Origin: an uncultured Pseudobdellovibrionaceae bacterium
GTDB lineage: Bacteria; Bdellovibrionota; Bdellovibrionia; Bdellovibrionales; JAGQZY01
Direction: 5' to 3'
Assembly: GCA_964579625.1 (NCBI GenBank)
Contig: CAZOGU010000004.1
Coordinates: 5,496-69,495 of the forward strand
DNA length: 64,000 nt
The notes under the pieces are model-generated. The model did not search any database. It was given only the letters and a program-made list of their open reading frames with translations, and had not been told where the DNA came from. Both the position numbers and the translations under genes were made by a program. Within the stretch, counting starts at the first letter, position 1; the number at the start of each line of letters is the position of its first letter. Below are positions 274-62,089 of this stretch, one piece after another.

Positions 274-915
274 TTGAACTCTGCGGTGACCATTGTCTTT
301 CAAAATACTCATGTCGTCATCGTTGATAAACCTGCACAATGGCTTTCAATCCCAGGTCGCGATCCAAAAGATGATCGACCTGTTTTGGCTCAAGTGCTTG
401 AGCAGCAATTCAAAACAAAAATTTTTCCGATTCACCGCCTCGACGCCGAAGTTAGCGGTTTAATCATGTATGGATTGAGTTCTGAATTTCATCGCGATGC
501 CAATCTTCTTTTTGAAAAAAAATTAATCAAAAAAACCTATCAAGCCATTTCTTCCACATGCACCATCGCCGTTGGCGAAAAAATGATATGGAAAGCTCAA
601 ATTCTCCGCGGCAAAAAGAGAACGTACGAATCTCCACACGGCAAAGAATCCATCACCGAAGCACAAATCATCCAGAAAAAAGAGTCCCTCTGCGAATGGC
701 TACTGAACCCAGTGACAGGTCGATCTCACCAGCTCCGTTTTGAACTCTCACATCGCGGATTCCCGATCGTGGGAGACACCCTGTACGGATCACAAGTGGT
801 ATGGACGGAACCGGGAATCGCACTTCGCGCCCTCCGAATCGACGTCCCTGCTGACTTTGCCAGTCGTTGGTCACTCCCCGAGACGATCGAAAACGATCGA
901 AAACTTAAATTTTAA
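274..915 (+). CDS. RluA-family pseudouridine synthase
   Basis: VIVDKPAQWLSIPG, the HRLDAEVSGLIMY catalytic-Asp motif and the GRSHQLR motif. TTG start in the ORF track. Confidence 0.85.
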   Translation: MNSAVTIVFQNTHVVIVDKPAQWLSIPGRDPKDDRPVLAQVLEQQFKTKIFPIHRLDAEVSGLIMYGLSSEFHRDANLLFEKKLIKKTYQAISSTCTIAVGEKMIWKAQILRGKKRTYESPHGKESITEAQIIQKKESLCEWLLNPVTGRSHQLRFELSHRGFPIVGDTLYGSQVVWTEPGIALRALRIDVPADFASRWSLPETIENDRKLKF

Positions 916-2056: not shown

Positions 2057-2086
2057 AAAGCCTCCCACAAGGAGGCTTTTTTTATT
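2057..2086 (+). terminator. Rho-independent terminator after the 1005-2006 gene
   Basis: AAAGCCTCC-CACAA-GGAGGCTTT stem-loop followed by a T run. Confidence 0.6.
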
Positions 2087-2104
2087 AATACACAATCACG
2101 AAAT

Positions 2105-2306
2105 ATTTTTTAAAATTTAGAGATTTTTCAAAAGAGTTCTTAAGTCGACCTCCGTTGAGCGTGACGCGATCGTGAGCGAAGCGAACGACAACGGCAGAGC
2201 CAAGGAGGGACAGAGAGTGCAACTCGTTTGCGAGCTATGCTCGCAACTGTCCCGGACGAGCGTGTCGATTTAAGAACTCTTTTGAAAACTCTCTAAATTT
2301 TAAAAA
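2105..2306. repeat. Copy 1 of a hairpin element of about 200 nt: 44-bp AT-rich outer stem and 114-nt GC-rich conserved core
   Basis: 2105-2148 pairs with 2263-2306 (one T-C mismatch, one G-T). The core shares identical blocks of about 26 nt with 61908-62014. Lies 15 nt 3' of the uvrC stop. Confidence 0.8.
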
Positions 2307-2321
2307 AAGATTTTCGTTGTA

Positions 2322-4061
2322 TCAATCTTCTGGCAGAAAAGCCTTCTCCCGAAGTTCGCGGTGGAAGCTGATTGCAAAACGATGAGCCTCATCACGGAGG
2401 GAAACCAAAATTCGAAACGCCTCCGAGTTGGCTGCAAAAATCACAGGGTTCTGTCGATTGGGCAAATAAAAACGCTCGAAGGTTTTTTCGATCTTGTCAT
2501 CCCCAAATTGTCCTTTGGTTCGTTCTTTGGCAAGACCGACAATCGGAATATGTTGCTTATTCAAAGCCTTTAATGCTTCCATGGCAAACTTGAGTTGTCC
2601 TTTTCCGCCATCGACGACAATCAATTGCGGCTCTTCCCACTCATCATGTTTAAGTCTGCGAGATAATACTTCCTTCATGGCTTCAAAATCGTTCATGCCT
2701 GCAAAGGATTTGATTTTGTAGCGACGATATTGATCTTTGTTAGGAACACCATCCACGAAGACCACTTGCGAAGCCACAGTCTCCTGTCCCTGAAACGTGG
2801 AAATATCATAACACTCGATACGTCGAGGATAGTGAGGCAAATGAAGTTTGTCTTTGATAAGCTCCAAGGCCTGTTTTTTTTCTTCGTTTTTAGTGACATG
2901 GTTTTGGAACTTCTTTTCAGCGTTGGTTTGCGCCATTTCTAGCAGCTTTTGACCGATACTGCTGGTTGGAAAAATAATTTGTGTGGGATGATCCGAATAG
3001 AGCTTTAAAACCTCAGTTAATAGCTTGCGCAAATCATTGCCAATATCCAGAGGCAAAAGAATTTCGTCCGGCACAACGTTTTCGGCATAATACTGGTTTA
3101 AGAATGTCATCAACCAATCGCGCACATCCTCGTCGGGTGAAGAAGAATCAAGTAGCGGAAAGAAATGTCCCTTATGACCAATCACAGCCCCCTGGCGAAC
3201 GTGAACGGAACAGATCAGAGTTCCACGTTGATCGCCGTAAAAACTAAAAATATCTTGGTCTTTATCAATATCTGTATTGATCACAGACTGTTTTTCTAAA
3301 ACCCGTTGAATGGCCTTAAGACTGTCGCGCACGCGGGCGGCCATCTCAAATTTTTCTTGCTCGGCAAGGCCATTCATTTGTAATTCGAGATTTTTAAGGA
3401 GTTTGGCATTTTTGTTTTTGAAAAAGTTTTGAGCTCCTTTAATGGACTCTCGATAATCTTCTTCGGTGATCAATCCCACGCAAGGCCCTGAGCACTTTCC
3501 GATGTCGTAAGAAAGACAAGGTCTTTTGCGACTCTTAAAATAGTGATCCGTGCAATCGCGGAGCTTATAAACATTGTTTAAAAACTCAATGGTATCGTGA
3601 ACGATCTGCCCGCTCAAGTAGGGGCCAAAATAAGTCGCCCCGTCGCGCTTCACTTTGCGGGCGAGATAAAAGCGCGGAAAATGATCCTTGAGAGTGAGTC
3701 GAATATAGGGATAGGATTTATCATCTTTGAGACGAATGTTATAGCGTGGGCGATGCTTTTTGATCAGTGTGGCTTCGAGAAGAAGCGCTTCGGCTTCTGT
3801 CTTTGTAACGATGTACTCAATATGAAAAATGTTTCTGACTAAAAATTGAGTTTTTGGACTTTCGTGATTTTTTTGAAAGTAACTTCGCACGCGGTGACGC
3901 AGCTCTTTGGCTTTTCCCACGTAGATAATCTTCGAATCTACATTCTTCATCAGGTAAACACCGGGGCTCACCGGGAACTCTGTCACCAGTTTTCGAAGAG
4001 ATTCGATTTTGATTTCGTATTTTGTTTCGGCCACGGTCCATTCTAGCGGAGGCAAAAACAA
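2322..4061 (-). CDS. uvrC: Excinuclease ABC subunit C
   Basis: N-terminal GIY-YIG (PGVYLMKN..IIYVGKAKELRHRVRSYF), full UvrC-length architecture and a C-terminal HhH region. TTG start. Confidence 0.93.
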   Translation of the reverse strand: MFLPPLEWTVAETKYEIKIESLRKLVTEFPVSPGVYLMKNVDSKIIYVGKAKELRHRVRSYFQKNHESPKTQFLVRNIFHIEYIVTKTEAEALLLEATLIKKHRPRYNIRLKDDKSYPYIRLTLKDHFPRFYLARKVKRDGATYFGPYLSGQIVHDTIEFLNNVYKLRDCTDHYFKSRKRPCLSYDIGKCSGPCVGLITEEDYRESIKGAQNFFKNKNAKLLKNLELQMNGLAEQEKFEMAARVRDSLKAIQRVLEKQSVINTDIDKDQDIFSFYGDQRGTLICSVHVRQGAVIGHKGHFFPLLDSSSPDEDVRDWLMTFLNQYYAENVVPDEILLPLDIGNDLRKLLTEVLKLYSDHPTQIIFPTSSIGQKLLEMAQTNAEKKFQNHVTKNEEKKQALELIKDKLHLPHYPRRIECYDISTFQGQETVASQVVFVDGVPNKDQYRRYKIKSFAGMNDFEAMKEVLSRRLKHDEWEEPQLIVVDGGKGQLKFAMEALKALNKQHIPIVGLAKERTKGQFGDDKIEKTFERFYLPNRQNPVIFAANSEAFRILVSLRDEAHRFAISFHRELREKAFLPED

Positions 4062-4097
4062 TTTGTCATCTTATGGAATATAGAATAAACACCAAAT

Positions 4098-17316: not shown

Positions 17317-18592
17317 GATCGACAAAAAAAACCTGCTATTTTTATCTTATGGCGAAGACCTGTTTCAGAATCCGATTTTACAAAATCAATTCATTCAGTT
17401 TGCTGAAAACTTTGATCAAGACAAATTCAATATTCATATCTACAGCTTTGTACCGATTTCACGAAAGCGTCTTTTTGAAAATAAAAAATGGAATGAAGAA
17501 AAAACAGCCCTTCAAAATCGACTCCAGCAGAAGAACATTTCATTTCGGATCAGAACCCTCCCCGTATTGGCAAACTGGCTTTACTCAAATGTATGGCAGT
17601 TTTTTCTTTTTCACACTCCGTGGCAGCATTTGATATTGGCTTGGTATATTCGTCGCCATCAGATTCATTTTGTTTCCGCGCGCAGTTACCATGCCGGTTT
17701 TGTCGCATTAAGAGTTCGACAACTTTTTGGCCTGAAGTGCAAAGTGCATTTTGACCCGCGCAGTTTGTTTGTTGAAGAAGGTCAGCTTCTTAAAAAGATT
17801 CGAGGACTTTCTCTGTGGATGTGGAATCGTATCGAGAAGTACGTTTACGAAAAAGCGGATCTAGTGACTTTTGTTTCAGAGCCGTTTTTAGAGATGCAAA
17901 ATCAGAAGTTTAAAATAAAAAAGTCACTTTTGATGTACACTCATGTTGATATCGAAAAAATCAAATTTGTTGAAAATAAACCGATGTCGCCCCTGCGCTT
18001 TTGCTATCTGGGGCAGCTCGATCATACTGGGTGGCATCGAATTAAGAATCTTTTTGATCTTTTCGAGGTTCTACAAAAAGAATTTCCTGATTGCCAGCTT
18101 AGGATCATTACGAAGTCCAATCCTGAAGGTATTAAACAGGAACAGCAAATGCGGAATGTTAAGAATGTGGAGATTGTGTCATCTTCTTCACTGACGGAGA
18201 CTTCGAAGCTGTTGGAAAGTTGTCATTTTGGGCTATTGACCTACAAAGAAAACCGGAGCCAATCAACATTTGAAAAAAAACTCTCTTCGATAGGTTTCGG
18301 TTCGAAATGTGCCGAGTACCTTGCTGCCGGGCTTCCCCTTCTTTATCGACGTGAGATTGAAGGCTTGGACACTTTTGCTAAATACAAGAGCATCGGCGCC
18401 TCATATTTGATCGGAGAAGATATCAGCCTAGTTAAAGATATTTTATCTATCATAAAGAACTATAATAACATTTCGCAAAATTGTAGGAGCGTAGCCCTAG
18501 CTCATTTTAACGTAACGAACAATATTAAAAATATACAGTCCGAGTGCCTAGTAATTTATAAGAACTCAATCACAAACAATAATCTAGTGTAA
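17309..18592 (+). CDS. Putative GT-B (group 1-like) glycosyltransferase
   Basis: The ATG at 17309 overlaps the rfbD stop. C-terminal CAEYLAAGLPLLY resembles the GT1/GT4 acceptor-lobe motif. The assignment is weak. Confidence 0.45.
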   Translation: MSKIDKKNLLFLSYGEDLFQNPILQNQFIQFAENFDQDKFNIHIYSFVPISRKRLFENKKWNEEKTALQNRLQQKNISFRIRTLPVLANWLYSNVWQFFLFHTPWQHLILAWYIRRHQIHFVSARSYHAGFVALRVRQLFGLKCKVHFDPRSLFVEEGQLLKKIRGLSLWMWNRIEKYVYEKADLVTFVSEPFLEMQNQKFKIKKSLLMYTHVDIEKIKFVENKPMSPLRFCYLGQLDHTGWHRIKNLFDLFEVLQKEFPDCQLRIITKSNPEGIKQEQQMRNVKNVEIVSSSSLTETSKLLESCHFGLLTYKENRSQSTFEKKLSSIGFGSKCAEYLAAGLPLLYRREIEGLDTFAKYKSIGASYLIGEDISLVKDILSIIKNYNNISQNCRSVALAHFNVTNNIKNIQSECLVIYKNSITNNNLV

Positions 18593-18594
18593 CG

Positions 18595-19551
18595 TTATTT
18601 TACTTTTTTCGATTTTATAAATAGAAAAATTCCTAAAAAAATAAAGGGAATATCCATCATTTGATTCATTGTAAATAAGGCCGCAGCTTCAGATTTTGCT
18701 CCTAGAAAAATATCAAACAAAGAAGTGTATAGCACTTGCCCGACCCCAATTGAACCAGGTGTTAATGGAATGACCATGGCTAACGTTGCCAAAGGAACAA
18801 CCACCAAACAACTCACAAAGGTGATTTCATTTATATTCAAAATTAAAGCACACTGATATAAAAAAAAGGCAAAAATGAGATGCACAATTAAGCCTAAACT
18901 TATAGCTCTAAACCAAAATACAAATGATTTAAGCTGCAGAATTATTAACATAAGATATTCAAGTTTTTTTCTAAACCAATAAACGATCATTCCGCCTGAA
19001 AGCAAAAAACTAACAGTTAAAAGTATCACAAAATAAGATGGCGCTGGTATTTTAACAAAGGAAATAAGTCGATTTACATTCGCCTCTATATATGGGTAGG
19101 CCAGAAAAATAGAGCCGGCCATTAATATCAGCATTGAGATTAATCCAATTAGTCGATCTAAAAAAGTAGCCGTAATAATTTTCCCACCTTGTCTATACAA
19201 CTTGGCAGCATAAATACCCTTAAAAAGATCCGCAGACACATTACCCGGAATAAAGTAACTAAATAAGGTTGTTTGCAAGTTAAGCTGAAGAGACTGAACT
19301 AAACTTAATTCCACCTTTAATTCCTTAAGGACAAAAAACCATCTCAAGCTTGCTGCGTATAAAATAATGAATTTTAAAAAAAGTAGAAAAATAAAATTAA
19401 CAAACGAGATCTTATTAAAGATTTCAAATAAATTAAATTGCCCTTGTCTCACTAAATAATAAACGAGTGCTCCACCTAAACCATAACGAAATAATAGAGG
19501 AATAGATCTCATAAATATGCTTTGGTTTTTAAAAAATGTTTGAATACTCAT
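18595..19551 (-). CDS. UPF0104 / LPG-synthase-TM-like 'flippase-like' membrane protein
   Basis: About 8 TM segments. FIPGNVSADLFKG resembles the family motif. Very AT-rich. Confidence 0.5.
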   Translation of the reverse strand: MSIQTFFKNQSIFMRSIPLLFRYGLGGALVYYLVRQGQFNLFEIFNKISFVNFIFLLFLKFIILYAASLRWFFVLKELKVELSLVQSLQLNLQTTLFSYFIPGNVSADLFKGIYAAKLYRQGGKIITATFLDRLIGLISMLILMAGSIFLAYPYIEANVNRLISFVKIPAPSYFVILLTVSFLLSGGMIVYWFRKKLEYLMLIILQLKSFVFWFRAISLGLIVHLIFAFFLYQCALILNINEITFVSCLVVVPLATLAMVIPLTPGSIGVGQVLYTSLFDIFLGAKSEAAALFTMNQMMDIPFIFLGIFLFIKSKKVK

Positions 19552-19711
19552 CCCCGCTCATACCATACCGAATAATTAGCCGATTTTCATGAAGTATTAT
19601 CGAAAATAAACTGAAAGTAAGTATTCTTCAAATAATATAAACTAGGTTAAATAATGAATACTTTTAGTGTCGTTTTACGGATCTTGACTCTGAAAAATCT
19701 GCCTTGTACAA

Positions 19712-20422
19712 GTGAACAACGTGGCAACTCATAAAGTAATCTCTATTATTCAACCAAGCTTTTTGCCCTGGCGTGGTTATTTTCAAATTATTTCTCAAAG
19801 TGACGGTTTTGTTTTTTATGACGACGTTCAATATGACAAGCACGGCTGGCGGAATCGCAATCAAATTAAAACCGCATCAGGCCCTCAATGGATAACAGTT
19901 CCTGTGCTTAGCAAAGGAAAATCTGAGCAACCGATATTTGCGGCACAAATCGATAACACTTCTCAATGGGGAAAAAAAATTATAAAGAGCGTTGCTGTTT
20001 CTTACAAAAAGGCAGCTTATTTTGACCTTTACTTTGAATGGTTTAGTAAAATTCTTAACCAAAAATGGGAGTCTATTTCCGCTCTTAATATTCAGTTAAC
20101 TAAAGAGATATCTTATTTCCTTGAGATTAAAACTGCTTTTTATTTATCCAGCGAACTCAAGATTCCGCATGGTGACCCAACTCAGCGACTGGTAGAAATT
20201 TGTAAATCATTTTCCGCCAACACTTATGTTTCGGGACCTAGCGCTAAAGCATACATAGGAAATGGAGAAAAATTCACCAAGGCAGGTGTCCATTTAGAGT
20301 ATGCCTCTTATCAGATGCCGCCATACACACAACTCTTCGGCCCCTTTTTTCCAACTGCATCCATTATTGATCTGCTCTTCAATGAAGGGCCGAACAGCAA
20401 AGAATTTCTTAAAAATACATAA
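19712..20422 (+). CDS. WbqC-family protein
   Basis: IIQPSFLPWRGYFQ...YDDVQYDKHGWRNRNQI..WITVPV signature. Confidence 0.8.
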   Translation: MNNVATHKVISIIQPSFLPWRGYFQIISQSDGFVFYDDVQYDKHGWRNRNQIKTASGPQWITVPVLSKGKSEQPIFAAQIDNTSQWGKKIIKSVAVSYKKAAYFDLYFEWFSKILNQKWESISALNIQLTKEISYFLEIKTAFYLSSELKIPHGDPTQRLVEICKSFSANTYVSGPSAKAYIGNGEKFTKAGVHLEYASYQMPPYTQLFGPFFPTASIIDLLFNEGPNSKEFLKNT

Positions 20423-20507
20423 TAATGCGATGCATTTTAATCTATCTCAGTGCCACCCTCAAAAGATTGTATATAAGTGAGGATCACTGGATAAGCTAAG
20501 GAGATAA

Positions 20508-21644
20508 ATGAATATTCCTTTGGGTCAGCCTTTTATTCCTGAATCAGCATCTATGTACATGCTGGAAGTCTTACGTTCTGGATCACTATCTGGAGACAAT
20601 AAATTTACAAAAAAATGTAATGAATGGCTCACATTGAACACCAATTGCCGTCGCGCCCTTCTGACTCCTTCTTGCACACACGCATTAGAACTCACTGCAC
20701 TGCTTTGCAATATCGAGCCAGGGGACGAGGTCATAATGCCCTCTTTTACTTTTTCATCCACTGCGAATGCATTTGCGTTGAGAGGTGCTCGCATTGTCTT
20801 TGTCGATATTAGGCCGGACACTATGAACCTCAACGAAGAGCTCATAGAACAAGCCATTACAAAAAAGACAAAAGCGATTGTTCCCGTTCATTACGCTGGG
20901 GTTTCCTGCGAAATGGATTCCATTTTGAGGACTGCCAAGGATTACCAACTCTATGTCATAGAGGATGCTGCCCAAGGCCTCATGTCTTCATATAAAGGGA
21001 AAAGCTTGGGGACTCTAGGAACTTTTGGTTGCCTAAGTTTTCATGACACTAAGAACTATACCTCGGGTGAAGGGGGCTCAATCCTCATCAACGAAGAACA
21101 ACACATGGCAAGGGCAGAGATTATTCGCGAAAAGGGAACCAACCGTGCTCAGTTTTTTAGAGGATTCGTTGATAAATATTCATGGGTCGATATTGGGTCT
21201 TCATATCTTCCAAGTGATATTTGTGCCGCTCTCCTTTATGCACAGTTAGAAGTGGCTGACGAGATAAATCAACAAAGGTTATCTACTTGGCAATACTACT
21301 TCAATTCGTTATCAGATTTATCCAATAAAGGGATGATTCGACTGCCGTTTGTTCCAGCTAATTGTAAACATAATGCCCATATATTTTATATACGCGTACA
21401 ATCATTGGAACAGAGGACTCAACTCATCCAATTTCTACGAACAAAGAATATTGGAGCCGCATTTCATTACGTACCCTTACACAGTTCTCCCGCTGGGCGG
21501 AAATATGGCCACTTTTGTGGCTCCGATATTTACACAACCTCAGAAAGTGAGAAATTAGTTAGGCTTCCTGTTTATGCCAATATGAATGATACCGATAGAG
21601 ATTATGTTGTTGATAATGTTCGTTATTTTTTTAACCAACTCTAG
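20508..21644 (+). CDS. wecE: dTDP-4-amino-4,6-dideoxyhexose transaminase (WecE/RffA-like, DegT family)
   Basis: Near-colinear similarity to E. coli WecE as I remember it (LLTPSCTHALE, GDEVIMPSFTFSSTANAF, FHDTKNYTSGEGG, REKGTNRAQFFRG). Confidence 0.85.
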   Translation: MNIPLGQPFIPESASMYMLEVLRSGSLSGDNKFTKKCNEWLTLNTNCRRALLTPSCTHALELTALLCNIEPGDEVIMPSFTFSSTANAFALRGARIVFVDIRPDTMNLNEELIEQAITKKTKAIVPVHYAGVSCEMDSILRTAKDYQLYVIEDAAQGLMSSYKGKSLGTLGTFGCLSFHDTKNYTSGEGGSILINEEQHMARAEIIREKGTNRAQFFRGFVDKYSWVDIGSSYLPSDICAALLYAQLEVADEINQQRLSTWQYYFNSLSDLSNKGMIRLPFVPANCKHNAHIFYIRVQSLEQRTQLIQFLRTKNIGAAFHYVPLHSSPAGRKYGHFCGSDIYTTSESEKLVRLPVYANMNDTDRDYVVDNVRYFFNQL

Positions 21645-21675
21645 TAATCTGCGCTTTGCAGCTTTAACCTTCAAG

Positions 21676-21699
21676 GCAAACTTAGAAGGTTTGCTTTTT
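21676..21699 (+). terminator. Possible intrinsic terminator after the wecE-like gene
   Basis: GCAAAC-TTAGAAG-GTTTGC followed by TTTTT. Overlaps the 3' end of the convergent gene. Confidence 0.45.
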
Positions 21700-22554
21700 A
21701 CTTCTTGCAACAAAATAATAGCCTGATGAAATATGAGACGAACAAGGATGATGTCTCAGAAAAAAATCCAAATACTTAATAGGACTTAATAACCATGTGA
21801 TGGGCAATATTATTTTGTATAAGGCGACAGATCCAAAAGAAAAGACCAATGCAATCCATTCCTGAAGTAACCATAGCAAGCCTGATGTCGGCCCAACAGA
21901 GTGAAATGAAATAATATCAAAATCTGAAAAAAGTCTCTTAATGCCTTCCGGAGCATATCTCTGAAAATCAAATGGCGATGCATGAATTCCTTGCATAAAT
22001 GGTATAAAACATATTACGAACCCTCCGCTTCTGAGAACACGGTTAAACTCTTCAACAATTTGTTGTGGATTGTGGACATGTTCTAATACTGCAATATTAA
22101 TAATCACATCTAGAGAGCTATCAACAAAAGGAAGATTTGATATGGATGCGACAATATCTACATTCTTATAATTGGCCAAATCGACATTCAACACCTTAGG
22201 GCCAAAATCAGCTGTGCCGCATCCGAGATTAGCTATTCTACCTTTAGCTAACATATCCCTTGGAATAAGCTTTTTAACTGAGATCGTTGGCGCCACCGGA
22301 CTTAGAAGATTAACCATAAATGGATACAACCAAGACATTTTATTTTTAAATATTTCTTTTTTAGAATTTAACCAATCTTTATTAGAGAGCTCATCCCTAC
22401 TCCACGTCCCGTCAAAGACAAGCTGATTCCTATTTTTCTGGTATGTAAAATCACAAGCCTCACATATGCATAACCTCTTATCCAAAGAACTCTTACACTC
22501 AGGGCAGCATAAAATATCTTCAAAAAAATCTACTCTATTCATTTTTTCACCCAA
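21682..22554 (-). CDS. Class I SAM-dependent methyltransferase with an N-terminal Cys4 zinc-ribbon-like segment
   Basis: CCPECK..CICEAC, then NLGCGTADFG (motif I) and LDVIINIAVLEHV. An alternative ATG start lies at 22542. Confidence 0.75.
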   Translation of the reverse strand: MGEKMNRVDFFEDILCCPECKSSLDKRLCICEACDFTYQKNRNQLVFDGTWSRDELSNKDWLNSKKEIFKNKMSWLYPFMVNLLSPVAPTISVKKLIPRDMLAKGRIANLGCGTADFGPKVLNVDLANYKNVDIVASISNLPFVDSSLDVIINIAVLEHVHNPQQIVEEFNRVLRSGGFVICFIPFMQGIHASPFDFQRYAPEGIKRLFSDFDIISFHSVGPTSGLLWLLQEWIALVFSFGSVALYKIILPITWLLSPIKYLDFFLRHHPCSSHISSGYYFVARSKKQTF

Positions 22555-22592
22555 GTGGTTGGCCCATCAATATTGTCACCATAAATCAACTT

Positions 22593-24023
22593 TCAAAATG
22601 TTAATTTCCTTTCAAGTTTCCATGGAGACTTTTTGAGATTACCTAACATACCTTTTTCATAAACTGGTTCAAATTTTAAATCGCGACCATAAATACTAAC
22701 TGTACATTGCTCAAAACATAGGTTGGATTTTTCTAAGAGAAACCGTACGTACCGTTGCATTTTGTCAAAAGATTCTTCCCTCACTGTTTGTATTGGTGAA
22801 TTAACTCTGAATGCCCAAAAAACCCAAAACCGACCTTGAGTTGAAATATTGTGCAATGGAAGCCCATCACCATCATTGGTTAGGTCAATTTCATTTCCCA
22901 ATGAATCAGTGAAAGTTGCCTTTATCTGTTTATTATACGTCTGAAAATGTGTATGCATAAATACAGAGTGATGAGTTACTCCAAAAAAATCTTTCATGAG
23001 GGGGCTTATTGTGTGTAGATACTTAGTATTTTTCAATCCGAAAAAGTCAAATCCTGGGGCCAAACCAATCAAGAAAAATTGATAAAAAAGGCAAAAAGAA
23101 GAAAAACTTATTAAAGTTGCTTTGGCAAATGGAGATATTCGATGACCTAATTTAACTTCCTGATCATTTAAGGGCTTATAAAGCATTAACAAATAAAGCG
23201 AGCAATAACCTAAGGCAAAAAGTGGTATTGGAAACGCAATCAATATCCCTAAGTGAAGAGCTCCACCAAAAATAAAAAGAATAAATCGAAACTTGCGAAA
23301 CCAAAACATAAAAATAAATACTGTTTCAAAAAGCAGGGTAATAAGGGAGGCCGCCAATACTATCAGTTTTTGATCAAGTAAGAGGCTCAAATCCATTTGT
23401 GCTGCCGGCGGTAGAGAAGCTGGCAACCAAAGCCCTAATAAATTTCTCCACATCGGCGATGACAATTTGAAAAAAATTGAATCGAAGTATATTAAAGCGA
23501 CAGGTACAAATAAAAAAGTCAGATAGTAATACTGAGGAACGGAGCGAGCAACCTGTCTCGACTTAAAAATAAATTCCGCAGAATATTTATAGTTCAATGG
23601 AATGAATATCGCTAAAAAGGAACAACCCAACCAAGCGTAATCCATGTGATATTCCAAGTCACTTGCCGTATCTCCAAGAATATAAACCGTTAATAGATAA
23701 TTAATTATTTTGTAGAAGCTTGCGAAAGGGAGCCCAATGATAATACAAATTATGGAGCCTATCCATGCAAACAGGGCAATATCCCTAATTCCTTCGTGGA
23801 GGCCTAATTCTGCGAAATAGAACTCTTTCATCATTAGAATCTGTAACGCCTCAAGCAATAAAATAGAAAAAAAACAGATCCTAAATAGATCTAACTGAGT
23901 TGATGTTACTGGGCGATTTAGATATTTATTAAATTGTTGAGAAAGAAACCAAGGATTCATTTTTTGAGATAAACTTTGCATATTACTCTCTTCGAAATGG
24001 AAATAGGTACCAATAAATAGCAC
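22593..24023 (-). CDS. Large polytopic membrane protein, possibly HTTM-domain-like
   Basis: LDLFRICFFSILLLEAL resembles the start of HTTM domains. About 9 TM segments plus a soluble C-terminal domain. Confidence 0.45.
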   Translation of the reverse strand: MLFIGTYFHFEESNMQSLSQKMNPWFLSQQFNKYLNRPVTSTQLDLFRICFFSILLLEALQILMMKEFYFAELGLHEGIRDIALFAWIGSIICIIIGLPFASFYKIINYLLTVYILGDTASDLEYHMDYAWLGCSFLAIFIPLNYKYSAEFIFKSRQVARSVPQYYYLTFLFVPVALIYFDSIFFKLSSPMWRNLLGLWLPASLPPAAQMDLSLLLDQKLIVLAASLITLLFETVFIFMFWFRKFRFILFIFGGALHLGILIAFPIPLFALGYCSLYLLMLYKPLNDQEVKLGHRISPFAKATLISFSSFCLFYQFFLIGLAPGFDFFGLKNTKYLHTISPLMKDFFGVTHHSVFMHTHFQTYNKQIKATFTDSLGNEIDLTNDGDGLPLHNISTQGRFWVFWAFRVNSPIQTVREESFDKMQRYVRFLLEKSNLCFEQCTVSIYGRDLKFEPVYEKGMLGNLKKSPWKLERKLTF

Positions 24024-24063
24024 CTTATATTGACTTTAACTATTTTCTTTTTTACTTATCACT

Positions 24064-24984
24064 ATGCCTTTCATATCTGTAGCATCCACAATTTATAACT
24101 CATCGGGTCATTTGTCGCAATTTGTGGACAGGCTCGCAAAAGAGCTCGAAAAATTTGATGGAGAAAAAGAAATTGTACTTGTAAATGATGGCTCACCTGA
24201 TAACTCGCTATTCATAGTAAACGAGCTTTGCAACAAATACACTTATCTAAAAGTATACAATCTGTCTAAAAATTATGGCCATCATACCGCCATGTTTGCT
24301 GCCATCGAAAAGTGTCAAGGTGATTTTATTTTTGCTATTGATAGCGATTTAGAAGAACCACCCGAGTTACTCACATTTTTTTACACTACTCTTAACAACG
24401 AAAATGCCGATGTTGTTTATGGTATTCAAAATGAACGAAAAGGAGGTTTCATAAAAAAACGATTGGGCGGTCTTTTCTATCTCCTATTTAACCTCTTATC
24501 TGACACTAAGATCCCAAAAAACATGCTCATGGCGCGACTCATGACGAAACGCTATGTAAATGCACTAAAACTCTATCGCGAAAAGTCTCTATTCCTTGGC
24601 GCTGTCTTCGCGGATGTAGGATTTAAACAGATCCCTTACTTTGTCGAAAAAAACTCGAGAAAAGAGAGCAATTATTCATTTCGTGCTAGATTGCAGCTTG
24701 CTATTCAAGGAGCTACGTCTTTTTCTTATAAGCCTCTCTTAGTCATTTTCTATACTGGTTTTTTTATTTGGCTTATATCGACAATGTATCTGATTTTTAT
24801 CATTTACGAAAAAATTTGCAATGGAACCGCCATCGGATGGGCGTCATTAATTGCCTCAGTTTGGTTCCTCGGAGGACTTAATATATTATTCCTTGGAATT
24901 ATAGGTATTTACCTCTCCGTTATATTTACAGAAATAAAATCGAGACCTACAATTTTGGAAGAGATTTCATCTAAATCAAAATAA
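24064..24984 (+). CDS. Polyprenyl-phosphate glycosyltransferase, GT2 (ArnC/GtrB-like)
   Basis: ISVASTIYN..VLVNDGSPDNS and DSDLEEP (DxD), plus two C-terminal TM helices as in ArnC/GtrB. Confidence 0.75.
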   Translation: MPFISVASTIYNSSGHLSQFVDRLAKELEKFDGEKEIVLVNDGSPDNSLFIVNELCNKYTYLKVYNLSKNYGHHTAMFAAIEKCQGDFIFAIDSDLEEPPELLTFFYTTLNNENADVVYGIQNERKGGFIKKRLGGLFYLLFNLLSDTKIPKNMLMARLMTKRYVNALKLYREKSLFLGAVFADVGFKQIPYFVEKNSRKESNYSFRARLQLAIQGATSFSYKPLLVIFYTGFFIWLISTMYLIFIIYEKICNGTAIGWASLIASVWFLGGLNILFLGIIGIYLSVIFTEIKSRPTILEEISSKSK

Positions 24985-25011
24985 GTTACTTAAATATAAG
25001 GAACACTAGTA

Positions 25012-25674
25012 ATGAAAAAAAATCTAATTGTTCTTGGTGGTGGACGCTTCTCCCATCTCATTGAGGGCCTCGCCACAGATGTCGGCAAATACGAAAAAAT
25101 TATTTTTTATGATGATATTATTAAATCAGAAAGAATTTCTGGAACCATAAATGATGCTGAAAAAGAAGACCCTTCTTGTACTGAATTTGTAATAGGAGTC
25201 GGATATCTTCACTTCTCACTAAGAGAAGAACTCTACAACCGTTTTAGTGAAAAATATACCTTTGCCACTCTTATACATCCTTTCTCTTTTATTTCTCCAA
25301 AAAGTAGAATAGGAAGCGGAACAACAATATTCTCCAACACCAACATTGAACAAGGAGTACATATTGGATGCAATACAACTATTTTTAACAACACCAGTAT
25401 TACTCATGATGTTCAAATTGGTAGCCATAGTTTTATCTCTGTAGGAGTAAATATGGGCGGAGGAGTAATAATCGGGAAAAAAGTATTCATTGGTGTCGGC
25501 ACTGTTATAATTAATGATATAAAAATCGAAGATGAAGCAACTATTTGCGCAGGAACAGTTATTTCAAAGCCAGTGCTCGCCAAACAGACAGTTGTTGGAT
25601 ATCCACAACGTCAGATTGACGACGTACTTTTAAAGAGAGAACTTCTCGGGGGCACGGTTGAATCAGAAGACTAA
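25012..25674 (+). CDS. NeuD/PglD-family sugar N-acyltransferase (hexapeptide repeat)
   Basis: N-terminal Rossmann-like LIVLGGG and a C-terminal left-handed beta-helix repeat (IGxxxxI pattern). Confidence 0.7.
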   Translation: MKKNLIVLGGGRFSHLIEGLATDVGKYEKIIFYDDIIKSERISGTINDAEKEDPSCTEFVIGVGYLHFSLREELYNRFSEKYTFATLIHPFSFISPKSRIGSGTTIFSNTNIEQGVHIGCNTTIFNNTSITHDVQIGSHSFISVGVNMGGGVIIGKKVFIGVGTVIINDIKIEDEATICAGTVISKPVLAKQTVVGYPQRQIDDVLLKRELLGGTVESED

Positions 25675-26335
25675 CAAAAAACTCGAACAAATCTATCGCG
25701 ATCAATATCTCAAAGAAGGAGATAGTCCAAGAGGTTTTTTTTGGAATAATATTGAAACACAAGAGCTTAGATTCAGAAAGATTCTTGAAATGATACCCCC
25801 TATGGATAATTTAACTGTTCATGATATTGGATGTGGCACTGGCGGGTTTCGACTTTATTCCGAAAAATTAAACTATAATATTCGATACTCTGGTTGCGAA
25901 GTCGTTCCAGAAATGGTCACTGATTTTCGTAAAAATAATCCTAATTCTGAAGTTTTTTTAGGTCATTTTTTAGATCTCCCTTATGATTCAAAATCCTATG
26001 ACTTTGTAACACTTAGTGGTCTTTTTAATATGCCTCCGACAGACCATATAGATTGGCAAACTTTCTGTGAAGAGACCCTCAAGAAGATGTGGCAGATCGC
26101 ACGAGGGGGAATAGTATTCAATTGCCTAACAAGTTACTCCACCTTTGTAGACAAAAATCTATTCTACTTAGATCCCAAATATATTTTTGATTTCTGTCAT
26201 AAAAATTTTTCTCGCCATATAAAAATTGACCACAGTTATCCTTTGTATGAATTTGCAGTAGCGGTATATCGTGATGAATTTTCTAAAAAATATTATCCTG
26301 AAGACGCATTTTTGAAGTATTATCCTAAATGTTAG
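25658..26335 (+). CDS. Class I SAM-dependent methyltransferase
   Basis: VHDIGCGTGGF motif I and FDFVTLSGLF. TTG start overlapping the upstream gene. Confidence 0.7.
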   Translation: MNQKTNKKLEQIYRDQYLKEGDSPRGFFWNNIETQELRFRKILEMIPPMDNLTVHDIGCGTGGFRLYSEKLNYNIRYSGCEVVPEMVTDFRKNNPNSEVFLGHFLDLPYDSKSYDFVTLSGLFNMPPTDHIDWQTFCEETLKKMWQIARGGIVFNCLTSYSTFVDKNLFYLDPKYIFDFCHKNFSRHIKIDHSYPLYEFAVAVYRDEFSKKYYPEDAFLKYYPKC

Positions 26336-26419
26336 TCCTCAACTGACTTGCGAATTTACTAAGAATCATAAATATATCAAAGTAGTCGAACTGCACAGAA
26401 ATTCATCTATTTTTTAGAA

Positions 26420-28207
26420 TCAATTCCTTTTGAATGAATGGCATTTGTTTAAAATTGATTGTTTATCTTTAGGTTTATAGACGGAATGTACATAATGATG
26501 CTGATTAACTTTCAGAGGAGATAATGTTTTATCCACAAATAAATAATCTTTCTGCAAATCCAATCCTACTTGATGAAGAATTGATGGGGACAGGCTTAGC
26601 ACCCCATCTTCCTCAAATAATAACCAAGATATTGTAAACATCTCACAAGATAAACGTTTTAAGGTTAAAGCAGCAAAATTATTGCTCCCCGGATACCCCC
26701 CTAATAGCCATGGCTTTCCTGGCGCAATCCCTCCCAAGATATAAGAAACTCCTGGAAAGTGACCTGTAAAATCAATTACGCTTATTTTATTACCCATAGG
26801 ATGTATTATTTTTTTCATATTTTGTATGTACTGATTAAAATCTTTCGAAATAATTAATTTAGAATCACCAAAAGGAATACTTGTTTTTGAATAACTTTTT
26901 TGCAGAGGCTCAGATTGTCTATATGGACTATACCATGAATTGACTAGAGTCATAATTGTCATCAGCTGCGCTATAGAAATGCAAATTCCTATTGTCAAAA
27001 AACTCTTTACTCTTTGTTGAGTACAAAAAAGTAAATAGCTTAGACTTAGGACCCAGAATAAACTTGCGTAAGTGGAAAACTCCCAAAAATTATTACCTGT
27101 TCCAAAACTATAAACAAATGGCATAAATGCCACTAATATAGGAAGAAAAAAATCAATCTTCCTTCTCATTATCCAACTCCAAAAAAGAATACTAAAAATA
27201 TAAATAACATAAAAGAGAAAGTAGATAGACTTAAAATCTAATACGGAAAACTGTTTCTCTGTGTATAAAATAAAAATAGATAATGCTGATATTAAATAAT
27301 AGCTCATCAAAAAAATTACATTTATAAAAATATTCTGAGAATAAAAAATGAATAATACAATGGCGGCGCTTATAAATAAGAAATTCCTAACCTCCATTGC
27401 ATTAATTGTAATTGGATCAAAACGAAGTGTCTTGCTTAAATCTTGAGATGCGCTTAACACACTGGCATCATTCAAACTCAGAAGTATGCGTTGGATAAAT
27501 TTGTCTAACGTTCCATCAATTACAATGGCACTCCCCAAAATGAGTAAGATAGCTAAAAGTGCTGTTAGAATAAATATTCTATACTTAAACTTATGTTTAA
27601 TTTTAATAATTCTAACTAAACCTAAAACAACCAATAGGATACTCGAAGTTGGTTTGGCCATAAATGATAGCCATATTCCAAAAGAAAAAAGCACTGATGT
27701 AACAAAATATTTACCTTGCGACTCACTACCTACCAATATGATACCTAAGCATCCCAAAAGTAGACCTATGAAATTAAGTGAATTGTAACTTGGAGTACAT
27801 ATCCAAAGTTGAAAGTAGACACAAAATACTGAAGCCATAGATATCGCAGTCAAAAAACGATTTAAAATACTCATGTTTTTAAAGACTTTTGTTTGCAAAA
27901 GGATGTAATAAGTATTTATAAAACTTAAAAAAAGTAAAACAGATACGTTAAAATATCTTAGAAGAACAATGTCTCCACCGAAAAAATTGTAAATTGGATG
28001 AAATACAAAACCAAATTGAGTAACCGACTCAGCATAGTCATAAGGGCGAGCTATCCAATGAAGGTAAAAGCTTTCATCGCTAAAATCAAATCCATATGGA
28101 ATATAACTGTAAACTTTGCAAATTATTAATACAGAGACAATTGCTGTTGCCCACACGCAAACAGTATCACAAAATTGAAGTAATTTGATATTCTTGAGCA
28201 TTTTCAT
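26420..28207 (-). CDS. Large GT-C-like membrane glycosyltransferase (ArnT/PMT-like), putative
   Basis: About 14 TM segments. Acidic motif YGFDFSDESFY in the first predicted external loop. Soluble C-terminal domain. Confidence 0.5.
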   Translation of the reverse strand: MKMLKNIKLLQFCDTVCVWATAIVSVLIICKVYSYIPYGFDFSDESFYLHWIARPYDYAESVTQFGFVFHPIYNFFGGDIVLLRYFNVSVLLFLSFINTYYILLQTKVFKNMSILNRFLTAISMASVFCVYFQLWICTPSYNSLNFIGLLLGCLGIILVGSESQGKYFVTSVLFSFGIWLSFMAKPTSSILLVVLGLVRIIKIKHKFKYRIFILTALLAILLILGSAIVIDGTLDKFIQRILLSLNDASVLSASQDLSKTLRFDPITINAMEVRNFLFISAAIVLFIFYSQNIFINVIFLMSYYLISALSIFILYTEKQFSVLDFKSIYFLFYVIYIFSILFWSWIMRRKIDFFLPILVAFMPFVYSFGTGNNFWEFSTYASLFWVLSLSYLLFCTQQRVKSFLTIGICISIAQLMTIMTLVNSWYSPYRQSEPLQKSYSKTSIPFGDSKLIISKDFNQYIQNMKKIIHPMGNKISVIDFTGHFPGVSYILGGIAPGKPWLLGGYPGSNNFAALTLKRLSCEMFTISWLLFEEDGVLSLSPSILHQVGLDLQKDYLFVDKTLSPLKVNQHHYVHSVYKPKDKQSILNKCHSFKRN

Positions 28208-28245
28208 GAATACATCTCAGTTCCAATACTTATCAACATACTCGG

Positions 28246-28989
28246 TTAGATAAATAACTTTTGGTAAGCGGTAGCTCCGCCCTCTACATCACCATCGTGA
28301 ACAATTTCTCCGTTCTCAATAACTATGCTACGAGAACAATACTTGCGAACAGCCTGCGGATCGTGTGTTACCAAAATAACAGTTTTGCCACTTTTAAAAA
28401 TTTCTTCCATTTTTTTCATCGATTTTTTTTGAAAGCCCTCATCTCCAACAGCAAAAATTTCGTCCAACAGAAGAATAGGCGCTTCAACGAAAGCTGCTAC
28501 GGAAAAGCCCAAACGAACAATCATTCCCGAGGAGTAGTTTTTAACCGGACGATAGACATCATCGCCCAAACCTGAAAACTCAATAATTTCATCTAATTTT
28601 TCTTTGATTTGTTGGCGCCCAAAACCCAGAATGGATGCGTTCAAAAAAATGTTATCATACCCAGACAATTCAGGCTGAAATCCGGCACCTAACGCCACCA
28701 TGGGCGCCAGCTTTTCCTTCACCAGCACATTCCCTGAGGTTGGGCTGTAAATCCCACTGAGGATCTTCATGAGAGTCGTTTTACCGCTTCCGTTGCGCCC
28801 CATAATTCCAATAAAATCACCGTAACGGATATTAAAACTGATTTCTTTTAAAACCTGTTTGTCTACACTCTTCGTTGTTATCTGCCCTCGCGCTAGATTA
28901 ACAAGCACACTTTTAATGCTATCGGGCCGCTCATGGTAGATGCGAAAAGATTTTGAAAGTTTGTTTACCTCAATGACGTCCGTGTTCAT
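28246..28989 (-). CDS. wzt: O-polysaccharide ABC exporter ATP-binding protein, short form without a C-terminal carbohydrate-binding domain
   Basis: Walker A GRNGSGKTT, signature YSSGM, Walker B LLLDE. 247 aa in total. Confidence 0.85.
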   Translation of the reverse strand: MNTDVIEVNKLSKSFRIYHERPDSIKSVLVNLARGQITTKSVDKQVLKEISFNIRYGDFIGIMGRNGSGKTTLMKILSGIYSPTSGNVLVKEKLAPMVALGAGFQPELSGYDNIFLNASILGFGRQQIKEKLDEIIEFSGLGDDVYRPVKNYSSGMIVRLGFSVAAFVEAPILLLDEIFAVGDEGFQKKSMKKMEEIFKSGKTVILVTHDPQAVRKYCSRSIVIENGEIVHDGDVEGGATAYQKLFI

Positions 28990-29765
28990 AATTTTTCAAT
29001 CACTCCCTGGCCAAATTTATTCAGCGTTAGAAATGCGACAGCGATGCTAAAAAGCGTCCAGGCAATGAGCGCAATGAGCGAGTCATAGTGCATCGGTTGA
29101 TCAAAAATTATATTCCTAAACAGAATAAAAAAGCCAGCAACCGGATTTAAACTGATGATCAAACTTTGGTATTTCTGCGGAACCATATCTATGCCGTACA
29201 CAATCGGAGTTCCGTAGAACCAAACTTGCATTATGAGTCCCGTGACATGCCTCAGATCTTTAAAATAAACGTAAACGACAGAAAAGATAACTCCTATCGA
29301 GAGAGCTAAGAGGTACAACAAAATAAATAATGGAAAAATACACACCAACGACCAATGCAGAGCCAGCCCACTGGTGAGATACACAATAACTGCCATCGGG
29401 AATGCCGCCAATAAATTAATCATATTTGTAATCGACGAAGTGTTTGGAAAAACCTGAATGGGAATAGGCATCTGATTCAATAAATACGCATTTGCGCTGA
29501 TACTTTCCATACTTTCACTAATGGTTGTGGAAAAAAAAAGCCAAGGTAGTAATCCGCTCACCAAAAAGACAAGGTAATACGGCATCGTGACCTTAAAAAC
29601 GATAATATATAAAAAGTAAAAAATCGAGATCTGTGACGCTGGAATTGCCATCGTCCAGAGATATCCGAGAAACGATTCTCTGTATTTAATTTTTAAATTT
29701 CTCATCACAAGATTAAAAATGAGAAATTTTTTATCTAAGCAGAAAAGGGAAAAAAGCTGACCCAT
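28986..29765 (-). CDS. wzm: O-polysaccharide ABC-2 exporter permease
   Basis: ABC-2 type 6-TM profile (RNLKIKYRESFLGYLW). 4-nt overlap with wzt. Confidence 0.8.
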   Translation of the reverse strand: MGQLFSLFCLDKKFLIFNLVMRNLKIKYRESFLGYLWTMAIPASQISIFYFLYIIVFKVTMPYYLVFLVSGLLPWLFFSTTISESMESISANAYLLNQMPIPIQVFPNTSSITNMINLLAAFPMAVIVYLTSGLALHWSLVCIFPLFILLYLLALSIGVIFSVVYVYFKDLRHVTGLIMQVWFYGTPIVYGIDMVPQKYQSLIISLNPVAGFFILFRNIIFDQPMHYDSLIALIAWTLFSIAVAFLTLNKFGQGVIEKL

Positions 29766-30016
29766 GATTTCCTAATGTTTTTGATTTAACGACCCTTCAA
29801 ATACGAAAACGAGATTTTTTCTACACTAAAACCAATTTGAAAACACCATTTAATAACAACGCATTTCCAATAGCTCCAGAACTTGTCATTTTGAGGAATT
29901 TAAGAGGGATGGCCCTGTCTTCGGCTTTAGAAACAGTTTGACTTTTTGAGTGTTTAAATCGATTCAATACTTGTTAAAACAAGAATAATGCCGCTGCGAG
30001 TCAAGAGGGCGTCTCT

Positions 30017-33211: not shown

Positions 33212-33224
33212 GGAGTTTACTGTT

Positions 33225-33872: not shown

Positions 33873-33879
33873 GAGTTTT

Positions 33880-34770: not shown

Positions 34771-34779
34771 AGAGTCACA

Positions 34780-35892: not shown

Positions 35893-35997
35893 ATATCGGC
35901 ATTTATCAAAAAAATCTTTGTTAAATAAATATTTAAAACAGCTTAGACTTTAGTCTATCTTTTGATATATTCGAAGAACCAAATATGAAAGGTCAAA

Positions 35998-37380: not shown

Positions 37381-37399
37381 TATTTAATTTTTTCTTTTG

Positions 37400-61821: not shown

Positions 61822-61859
61822 AAATCTCCCAAGCTAAACTTTGCCAACAAAACACAGGC

Positions 61860-62062
61860 TTTCTGAGATTTATTTTTACGGGATTTTAAAAACCTTCTTT
61901 TTCGGACCTCCGTTGAGCGTGACGCGATCGCCACCGGCGACAACAGCAGAGGTACGGAGGGGCAGAGAGTGCAACTCGTTTGCGAGCTTCGCTCGCACTG
62001 CCCCGGACTGCCGTGTCCGAAAAAGAAGGTTTTTAAAATCCCGTAAAAATAAATCTCAGAAA
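61860..62062. repeat. Copy 2 of the hairpin element of about 200 nt: perfect 48-bp outer stem and 107-nt conserved core
   Basis: 61860-61907 is perfectly complementary to 62015-62062. The core blocks are identical to those of 2149-2262. Lies 27 nt 3' of the metF stop. Confidence 0.8.
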
Positions 62063-62089
62063 ACGAAGCAACCTGTCGGCTTTCATCTC

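Follow-up and report, generated by a model that had tools for sequence, protein, structure and literature searches.

The window analyzed here, the whole 64,000-nucleotide stretch of contig CAZOGU010000004.1 from an uncultured Pseudobdellovibrionaceae bacterium, contains two elements of about 200 nt each, 59.7 kb apart, in which a GC-rich core is enclosed by a long AT-rich stem (copy 1, 2106-2307; copy 2, 61860-62062). Both are members of an undescribed family of hairpin-forming intergenic repeats from a clade of uncultured Bdellovibrionales. The strongest result of the analysis comes from the metF-manC site, where copy 2 lies: the element at this site is an old insertion that has since been inherited vertically, and its core sequence and the complementarity of its stem are under constraint. 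As to the role of the family, the preserved pairing makes a function probable, and our tentative reading of the sequences is that an insertion resembling a miniature inverted-repeat transposable element (MITE) may have turned into a constrained, co-transcribed RNA hairpin located in a 3' untranslated region or between two cistrons.

Insertion, descent, and constraint at the metF-manC site

The metF-manC gene order is conserved in relatives of the source bacterium. In five of them, whose ManC proteins are 80-82% identical to that of the window (loci L182-L187), the spacer between the two genes measures 20-39 bp and lacks the element, whereas the window and loci L180 (ManC 93% identical) and L181 (87%) carry an element at the same site and in the same orientation, the L180 contig ending inside it. 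The arms of the three elements are collinear, and all of them begin with TTTCT and end with AGAAA. Identity is 76% between the window and L180 and, over the whole arms, 59% between the window and L181, and the outer arms of the latter pair align with z = 3.5 against shuffles. The four-fold sites of manC differ by 58-66%, which is near saturation, as against 24% (window versus L180) and 41% (window versus L181) for the arms, and the left domain of the core is about 81% identical at this site. When the 48 stem pairs were compared between the window and L181, 28 were unchanged, 18 had changed on both sides, and 2 had changed on one side; the 18 double changes, which comprise 8 transitions and 10 transversions, are Watson-Crick pairs in both genomes. 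Because the double changes kept the pairing while silent sites came close to saturation, both the pairing and the core are constrained. These data agree with an earlier note, made from the letters of the window alone, which had taken conserved pairing with a non-conserved stem sequence as the mark of a selected fold.

Orthology of the arms was also considered at the uvrC site adjoining copy 1, and was unsupported in the comparison of the window with L003 and L004 (z = 0.7 and -0.5, respectively), so that only the metF-manC site was used for evolutionary arguments.

Architecture and covariation of the core

Read on the + strand of the window, the core common to the family is about 60 nt long and forms a three-way junction. 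In helix P2, CTCYGTTG is paired with CAACRG and, beyond a 3-nt bulge, AG; a 12-nt internal loop, AGCGKGACGCGA, is kept in eight of the nine full members of the family. The P3 hairpin takes the forms TCGC-GAA-GCGA, TCGCC-ACC-GGCGA, and TCGGC-GCA-GCCGA, and P4 is a short hairpin that has an NGGA loop and the covarying stems GGCA/UGCC, GCCA/UGGC, GAC/GUC, and GGCCA/UGGCC. In a model-guided alignment of the nine members, 92.7% of the cells were paired and 27 of the 37 modelled pairs had changed on both sides, counts that lean towards structure since the alignment was fitted to the model; an independent parse by hand agrees with them and finds compensatory changes in each of P2, P3, and P4. The observed pairing and covariation values were reached by none of 500 shuffles (covariation score, 0.658 versus 0.199 in the shuffles), and controls in which the partners had been slid by 1-3 columns were 41-49% paired.

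The two window copies carry an extra 46-nt hairpin domain within the P4 loop (2207-2253 and 61959-62004), with GGA on both sides, that is absent from L181, both L168 elements, L175, L179, and L008. The 7-bp helix that the earlier note had placed inside the core is present in both window copies, together with its compensatory difference (GGGACAG/CTGTCCC in copy 1 versus GGGGCAG/CTGCCCC in copy 2) and the hairpin with a variable loop, all of which are seen in the pairwise alignment; nevertheless, this helix, AGAGTGCAACTCGT, and the TTGCGAGC hairpin, which most relatives lack, form an accessory domain. Two other details of the proposed fold had to be revised. The 14-nt stretch AGAGTGCAACTCGT, which had been described as unpaired, is predicted to form a 4-bp mini-hairpin, GAGU-GCA-ACUC, in both copies, and the suggested CCTCC...GGAGG helix is unsupported because GGA sits in a hairpin loop, the family covariation pairing CTCCGTTG with CAACRG...AG instead. 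A small open reading frame (ORF) behind the GGAGG motif was considered as well and was rejected because the frames differ between the two copies.

The two window copies

An inverted-repeat search of the window showed that the arms of both copies are by far its longest close inverted repeats. The arms of copy 1 (44 nt, GC 0.23) are 95% complementary and 114 nt apart, with 42 of the 44 pairs being Watson-Crick and one T.C and one G.T the exceptions, exactly as had been described except that the positions given were off by 1 nt. Those of copy 2 (48 nt, 107 nt apart) are 100% complementary, and the claim of a fully self-complementary 48-bp stem was therefore correct. The stem of copy 1 runs on imperfectly for about 15 bp farther, across the stop codon of uvrC (2322-2324). 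The two cores are about 88% identical, and the long identical blocks reported earlier were recovered: each of the 26-nt blocks GACCTCCGTTGAGCGTGACGCGATCG and CAGAGAGTGCAACTCGTTTGCGAGCT occurs exactly twice in the window, against zero times expected from shuffles, and the remaining core blocks are also common to both copies in their alignment. The predicted folding of both copies, on either strand, is far better than that of shuffles (z = -10.7 to -14.4).

No reading frame is conserved between copies 1 and 2. A 98-residue ORF (61841-62137, + strand) passes right through copy 2; it is an artefact that arises from the lack of stop codons in the GC-rich core. Since five of the six core frames are open, such elements may be annotated as hypothetical proteins by gene callers.

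Members of the family

Instead of the two copies known from the window, the family now comprises nine full members and three partial relatives (L180, L004, and L003), all from uncultured Bdellovibrionales. The full-length elements are 155-203 nt long, non-coding, and dispersed. The locus of a relative fetched through UvrC (L008) contained two elements in inverted orientation, with unrelated arms of 39-48 nt and a common 60-nt GC-rich core that includes GAGCGGGACGCGATCG, the window counterpart of which is GAGCGTGACGCGATCG. A degenerate pattern made from the window and L008 types gave 38 matches in a metagenome scan, 35 of them chance matches in high-GC contigs and 3 true ones (L168, L175, and L179), on contigs of 43-47% GC from one assembly. 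An inverted-repeat scan of 295 kb of Bdellovibrionales DNA added the second L168 element and one in L181. A covariance model such as the earlier note had proposed, R1, was built from the nine full members and recovered all nine at 75-110 bits; it also detected the truncated L180 copy and the L003 remnant, and nothing else in the 295 kb.

Other probes were less productive. An exact 19/20-mer of the accessory domain (AGAGAGTGCAACTCGTTTG) had no match in viral, genome, and metagenome collections that do not include the source species; the accessory domain, moreover, is not the part of the family that is widespread. The 16-mer GAGCGKGACGCGATCG was rejected as too unspecific, having more than 120 chance matches in viral contigs, none of them with flanking inverted repeats. 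The concatenated six-frame translation of the core matched nothing in the protein database, and BLAST searches with the core found no match among plasmid records and only two short partial ones (22-40%), taken as chance, among phage records.

Several members show peculiarities of their own. Inverted pairs of elements 100-220 bp apart occur in L008 (4081-4236 and 4459-4596), where two convergent genes each have one element directly behind them, and in L168 (2451-2631 and 2732-2865), where the gene behind the second element would be beyond the contig end. The 100-bp spacer of the L168 pair contains a sigma-54-like motif, TTGGCACAAATGGTTGCA (2660-2680), pointing into the second element; its GG-GC spacing is one base longer than what we take to be the canonical consensus, and it may be due to chance. 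At the uvrC 3' site, other variants occupy the place of copy 1 in two relatives (L003, 10713-10780; L004, 11790-11835). The partial L004 element is of the L008 type (GTCCATCCATGGAC) and is cut by the contig end, and the L003 remnant retains only a small hairpin of the GTCCATCCATGGAC kind immediately enclosed by a perfect stem of 20 bp, which looks as though the remainder of the core had been lost and a stem had formed anew. In L179 the left arm (1-30) pairs over only 14 bp. The sequence that lies just beyond the right arm is found again in the first 10 bases of the contig, and a mis-join at the contig end is more probable than a true copy with a short stem.

Two tiers of the long stem

Across the family the full arms are 39-63 bp long, have a GC content of 0.23-0.46, and are Watson-Crick at 378 of 392 pairs. 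The stems of the two window copies had been regarded as essentially different in sequence, which holds for their outer parts only: the inner 15 nt or so are alike, and the left arms align above shuffles (score 6 versus -5.7 +/- 3.5), a weak residual similarity. The same two tiers are found between loci, where the 15-19 bp of stem nearest the core are semi-conserved (for example, GAATCTCTCTTTTTARGAC in the second L168 element and in L179) and the outer 25-45 bp are locus-specific, the outer arms of different loci being mostly not alignable (z from -1.4 to 3.6). The arms had no other match in the window or in the loci of relatives. The idea that they are spacer-like captures of foreign DNA was rejected, as the 21-mers of both arms are absent from viral contigs.

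Replication template switching has been documented to create and maintain hairpins (PMC8794818, PMC5941160). In the present family, double changes of the transversion type are many and wobble pairs are nearly absent, which suggests that one arm serves as the template for correcting mismatches in the other, as happens in template switching. Since the arms evolve more slowly than silent sites, selection must also act; it is probably selection, helped by template switching between the arms, that maintains the near-perfect Watson-Crick pairing of the stem.

Long perfect palindromes that lack the GC-rich core were also observed in relatives (L002, 7996-8082; L004, 7602-7702; L008, 7464-7544). Their arms, of 32-48 nt, are 100% complementary and unrelated in sequence, and two of these palindromes enclose ordinary bidirectional terminator hairpins. 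That of L004 takes up all of the sequence from one convergent stop codon to the other, in place of the unrelated terminator region of its near relatives L003 and L002 (flanks 92-94% identical).

Position and orientation relative to genes

The elements lie directly behind stop codons, at distances of 15 nt from uvrC, 27 nt from metF, 12 nt from the L181 gene, 14 nt from the L008 gene ending at 4067, and 6 nt from the L168 gene ending at 2445. At each unambiguous locus the transcript of the upstream gene would carry the complement of the window + version of the element, a rule that includes both inverted L008 elements, which belong to convergent genes, and the partial L004 element behind uvrC; L175, located between two convergent genes, is ambiguous in this respect. 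Position and orientation together argue for co-transcription with the upstream gene. At three loci, L175 (309-322, gene ending at 309), L008 (4587-4596, gene ending at 4587), and the window (2322-2326), the stem reaches at its base into the last codons or the stop codon of the neighboring gene, and the opposite arm thus carries an inverted copy of the gene end.

Possible origin and role of the element

According to the explanation that we tentatively favor, the element would share the transcript of the gene whose end lies a few nucleotides upstream, and the functional RNA would be the complement of the window + strand. When folded, this RNA would be a duplex of 40-60 bp with the core as its cap, and the duplex could serve either as a processing site for a double-strand-specific nuclease of the RNase III type or as a barrier to 3' exonucleases, setting the end and the stability of the upstream message. 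Processing might in addition release the capped core with the conserved inner stem, and the core may be a protein-binding module. The conservation of the inner stem and the freedom of the outer one fit a processing stalk whose inner part alone is retained in the product. If the element does belong to the upstream mRNA, it is the complement of the strand read in the earlier note that is transcribed.

A number of observations weigh against this explanation. The orientation rule is suggestive, being drawn from five or six independent loci only. Promoter and terminator scans found no conserved promoter and no U-tract terminator at either element, the terminator scan detecting the neighboring terminator at 2057-2085 and none at the two copies; a T-run stands 5' of the core and an A-run 3' of it, which is the reverse of an intrinsic terminator. 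The non-Watson-Crick positions show no wobble preference for the mRNA-sense strand: the 14 positions in the arms consist of five G.U pairs on the opposite (window +) strand, one on the mRNA-sense strand, and eight other mismatches, and the wobbles of P4 (U.G in three members) also favor the opposite strand, this bias not being significant. At the metF-manC site, 10 of the 18 double substitutions are transversions, which cannot pass via wobble intermediates and thus point to copying at the DNA level rather than to selection on RNA alone. Moreover, given that perfect palindromes also surround plain terminators in relatives, the long stem may not be specific to the element and may be common across the lineage wherever strong hairpins stand at gene ends. 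Evidence on the strand, and on RNA versus DNA, is therefore mixed; the element could act either as RNA or as single-stranded DNA, and through either strand. Matches to sigma-70 promoters in the arms were also considered and rejected, since they occur only in copy 1, arise from its AT-rich palindrome, and are not conserved.

A purely selfish element without any host function is possible, if doubtful. Such a MITE- or REPIN-like element would move as a single-stranded DNA hairpin by means of a putative transposase of the HUH/RAYT type or another kind that recognizes the core and the inner stem, and template switching would perfect and extend the outer stem as on any strong hairpin in the lineage. 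The dispersal of the copies, the filled-versus-empty site, the inner stem and core common to different loci, and the inverted pairs in L008 and L168 all suit this explanation, as do the strict Watson-Crick pairing with no wobble preference and the transversion-rich double changes. So do the perfect palindromes around ordinary terminators in relatives, one of which replaces a whole intergenic region, and the arms that run into stop codons; REPINs provide the precedent of long-lived hairpin repeats with compensatory changes (PMC3116915). On the other hand, no consistent direct repeat that would represent a target-site duplication was found at the boundaries of seven elements, scans of 30 window ORFs and of the called neighbor genes (including those of L001) revealed no transposase, and copy density is low, model R1 having no match in the loci of several relatives. 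The core kept at an orthologous site near silent saturation and the arms that evolve more slowly than four-fold sites also speak against a selfish element. Finally, orientation follows the neighboring gene and not the direction of replication, as the two L008 elements are opposite to each other and some 220 bp apart.

It is unlikely that the element is an independent small RNA gene on the window + strand, with the stem as its processing stalk and purine-rich A(N)GGA loops, two GGA motifs in each window copy, binding a regulator of the CsrA/RsmA type. The conserved unpaired segments, AGCGKGACGCGA, GAA, and NGGA, are indeed purine-rich on that strand; wobbles favor it as well (5 versus 1 in the arms, plus the P4 U.G in three members), without significance. 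The P4 loops read AUGGAU, ACGGAU, or AAGGAU, which we take to resemble CsrA sites. A scan with all 4227 Rfam models yielded no match in the window at the gathering threshold; permissive scans gave generic hairpin matches to miRNA precursor models and, as the only non-generic weak match, TwoAYGGAY (RF01731, clan CL00106) on the + strand, at 28.6 and 28.3 bits against a gathering threshold of 43. The other strand also matches TwoAYGGAY, at 22.8 bits, which indicates that the match is mostly to a generic long hairpin. The small RNA gene would have no conserved promoter or terminator, the members with a short core, which have a single GGA loop, would make a poor sponge, and at every locus the transcript would enter the 3' end of the neighboring gene in the antisense direction.

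A further proposal, which we hold to be quite unlikely, is a bacterial RNA class reminiscent of pri-miRNAs, in which a conserved small RNA would be excised from read-through transcripts behind genes. The small RNA would consist of the three-way junction with its A(N)GGA loop and the 12-nt conserved loop, and a double-strand-specific nuclease would be guided to it by the 40-60-bp locus-specific stalk, perfected by arm-to-arm template switching. If this were true, expression of the small RNA would be coupled to that of many unrelated host genes, and the cleavage would retro-regulate them.

Very unlikely, in our estimation, is a structural site at the DNA level, comparable with bacterial interspersed mosaic element (BIME) sites that bind gyrase or IHF or with a cruciform, in which the palindrome itself would function in double-stranded DNA. 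Both strands are equally constrained to Watson-Crick pairing, the arms are AT-rich (GC 0.23-0.46), and the elements lie between convergent genes and at 3' ends, where positive supercoils accumulate. However, the arms are separated by spacers of 55-114 nt, which make cruciform extrusion from duplex DNA unfavorable; the small core helices covary, which implies folding of a single strand; and orientation relative to the gene is conserved, which a symmetric DNA site would not need.

Chance similarity or an assembly artefact is effectively refuted: assemblers can make palindromes at contig ends, where the L002 palindrome and the odd left arm of L179 are both found, but the core blocks occur twice against zero expected, independent Logan assemblies from three runs reproduce the copy 2 arm, and contigs from different projects contain the same architecture in their interior.

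Comparison with known systems

The element works most like the repetitive extragenic palindromic (REP) sequences and BIMEs, the ERIC sequences, and the Correia elements, and it is a member of none of these families. REP sequences, BIMEs, and REPINs are likewise short non-coding extragenic palindromes, typically located at gene 3' ends or between convergent genes, which can form long hairpins in single-stranded DNA or in mRNA and are inherited vertically for long periods. REPINs are mobilized by RAYT transposases. In contrast to them, the present family has a low copy number, and no RAYT was seen within the 64-kb window. REPINs are REP doublets that form hairpins with compensatory changes across the hairpin, and in them the outer REPs with their flanking 16-mers are conserved and the central spacer is free (PMC3116915), whereas here the center is conserved and the outer stem is free. 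The GTAG/CGTC head of REP sequences (PMC3733652) was not noted in the arm ends read.

ERIC (IRU) and Correia (CREE/NEMIS) sequences are imperfect intergenic palindromes of 100-160 nt that are co-transcribed with their neighbors. RNase III or RNase E cleaves the hairpins they form, which alters mRNA stability, and such cleavage is the mode of action that we propose for the present family. They differ from it in having terminal inverted repeats and a sequence that is conserved between copies over the whole length, and in Correia elements also TA target duplications, as opposed to locus-specific outer stems (arms of 39-63 bp), a GC-rich core with a three-way junction, and no target duplication.

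Classical MITEs are of similar size, non-coding, and dispersed, and they share with the present family the filled-versus-empty polymorphism at one site and common inner inverted repeats. Unlike them, the family shows no target-site duplication and, as far as the scanned window ORFs and the called genes of L001 go, no matching insertion sequence; most of the inverted repeat is not shared, and the copies, instead of being recent and decaying, are old and under constraint. The contrast that the earlier note drew with a MITE is nevertheless too sharp, given the dispersed insertions, the filled-versus-empty site, and the 15-19 bp of inner stem shared between copies.

Integron attC sites resemble the element in placing structure over sequence, being imperfect palindromes that act as folded single strands. 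Their conserved motifs, RYYYAAC/GTTRRRY, stand where the stem begins at its base, and their center is variable, which is the opposite of the present layout; a regular-expression test found these core motifs on neither strand of seven elements, no cassette array was noted, and the proteins scanned included no integrase-family match. The earlier note had recognized no named RNA family in the element, and the Rfam, motif, and BLAST searches connect it with no named RNA family, no attC site, and no phage or plasmid sequence.

rRNA precursor stalks, which are cut by RNase III, and small RNAs of the Csr/Rsm type provide parallels for a long arbitrary duplex around a structured RNA and for A(N)GGA hairpin loops, respectively; Csr/Rsm-type small RNAs have many GGA loops, and the short-core members of the present family have one. 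Template-switched hairpins (PMC8794818; PMC5941160) are similar in their perfect stems and in their multi-base and transversion-type compensatory changes, and the new-looking perfect palindromes around other hairpins in relatives are similar to them too. Nevertheless, template switching is a mutational mechanism, which explains the perfect stem but neither the conservation of the core nor the placement behind genes in one orientation. The msr-msd non-coding RNA of retrons adjoins a reverse transcriptase, and none flanks either copy.

Genomic context of the window copies

The window is ordinary chromosome, and the positions of the two copies and of their parts are collected in Table 1. Copy 1 lies between a + strand gene (945-2006), whose product has no Pfam match, and the 3' end of the - strand gene uvrC; copy 2 is flanked by metF and manC, which are both - strand genes. 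The gene at 945-2006 has its own terminator, so that copy 1 is not needed to end it. UvrC is 86-89% identical to proteins of several metagenome-assembled genomes (MAGs) labelled "Bdellovibrionales bacterium" and 74-77% identical to those of Bdellovibrionaceae and Pseudobdellovibrionaceae MAGs. A look-up of the first gene of the window (274-915) returned no record.

Table 1. Positions of the two window copies, their parts, and the adjoining features
Feature	Positions	Strand	Remarks
Copy 1, left arm of long stem (P1)	2106-2149	+	inner ~15 nt family-like, outer part locus-specific
Copy 1, family core, left domain	2150-2206	+	alignment, hand parse, covariation
Copy 1, P2 5' strand	2150-2157	+	CTCCGTTG
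Copy 1, conserved internal loop	2158-2169	+	AGCGTGACGCGA
Copy 1, expanded P3 hairpin	2170-2188	+	
Copy 1, P2 3' strand	2189-2199	+	CAACGG-CAG-AG
Copy 1, start of P4 region	2200-2206	+	GGA motif
Copy 1, accessory hairpin domain within P4 loop	2207-2253	+	helix GGGACAG/CTGTCCC
Copy 1, accessory domain, 14-nt stretch	2214-2227	+	AGAGTGCAACTCGT
Copy 1, accessory domain, hairpin	2228-2246	+	TTGCGAGC-TAT-GCTCGCAA
Copy 1, core 3' end	2254-2263	+	GGACGAGCGT, including second GGA motif
Copy 1, right arm of long stem	2264-2307	+	
Copy 1, imperfect outward stem continuation, left	2086-2105		
Copy 1, imperfect outward stem continuation, right	2308-2326		includes uvrC stop 2322-2324
Copy 2, left arm	61860-61907	+	48/48 paired
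Copy 2, family core, left domain	61908-61958	+	
Copy 2, P2 5' strand	61908-61915	+	CTCCGTTG
Copy 2, internal loop	61916-61927	+	AGCGTGACGCGA
Copy 2, P3	61928-61940	+	TCGCC-ACC-GGCGA
Copy 2, P2 3' strand	61941-61951	+	CAACAG-CAG-AG
Copy 2, P4 5' strand	61952-61958	+	with GGA
Copy 2, accessory hairpin domain	61959-62004	+	GGGGCAG ... CTGCCCC
Copy 2, core 3' end	62005-62014	+	GGACTGCCGT, P4 3' strand TGCC
Copy 2, right arm of long stem	62015-62062	+	
uvrC	2322-4061	-	ends 15 nt before copy 1; mRNA would carry complement of + strand element
metF (MTHFR)	62090-63025	-	ends 27 nt before copy 2
manC	60427-61821	-	starts 38 nt past copy 2
Canonical intrinsic terminator	2057-2085	+	of upstream + strand gene (945-2006)

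The Logan contig SRR13608705_600 (run SRR13608705) covers exactly 2207-61889 of the window, which means that an independent short-read assembly broke at both copies, and two sister runs, found through a metF look-up, have contigs that end inside the copy 2 arm. The break at 2207 falls inside the copy 1 core, where the copies share only 26 identical bases, and may indicate either that the genome has further copies or that the hairpin was poorly covered.

Between the two copies, the region from 18000 to 38000 has a GC content of 0.31-0.40, compared with about 0.44 elsewhere, and encodes glycosyltransferases, aminotransferases, methyltransferases, an ABC-2 transporter pair, an asparagine synthase-like protein, and acetyltransferases. 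These genes probably make up an O-antigen or exopolysaccharide cluster, which may have been acquired horizontally, and the fact that copies of the element flank the wider sugar-gene region on both sides is probably a coincidence.

Implications

Because the elements break short-read assemblies, their recognition helps in the finishing of MAGs. The stem at the metF-manC site is an unusually clean natural case for weighing selection on RNA pairing against template switching in the upkeep of long stems. If our reading holds, the family would represent a new layout among bacterial intergenic palindromic repeats, in which a very long stem, conserved only in its pairing, is topped by a conserved, structured cap rich in GC and is placed directly behind stop codons in a poorly studied lineage of predatory bacteria that is known mainly from metagenomes.

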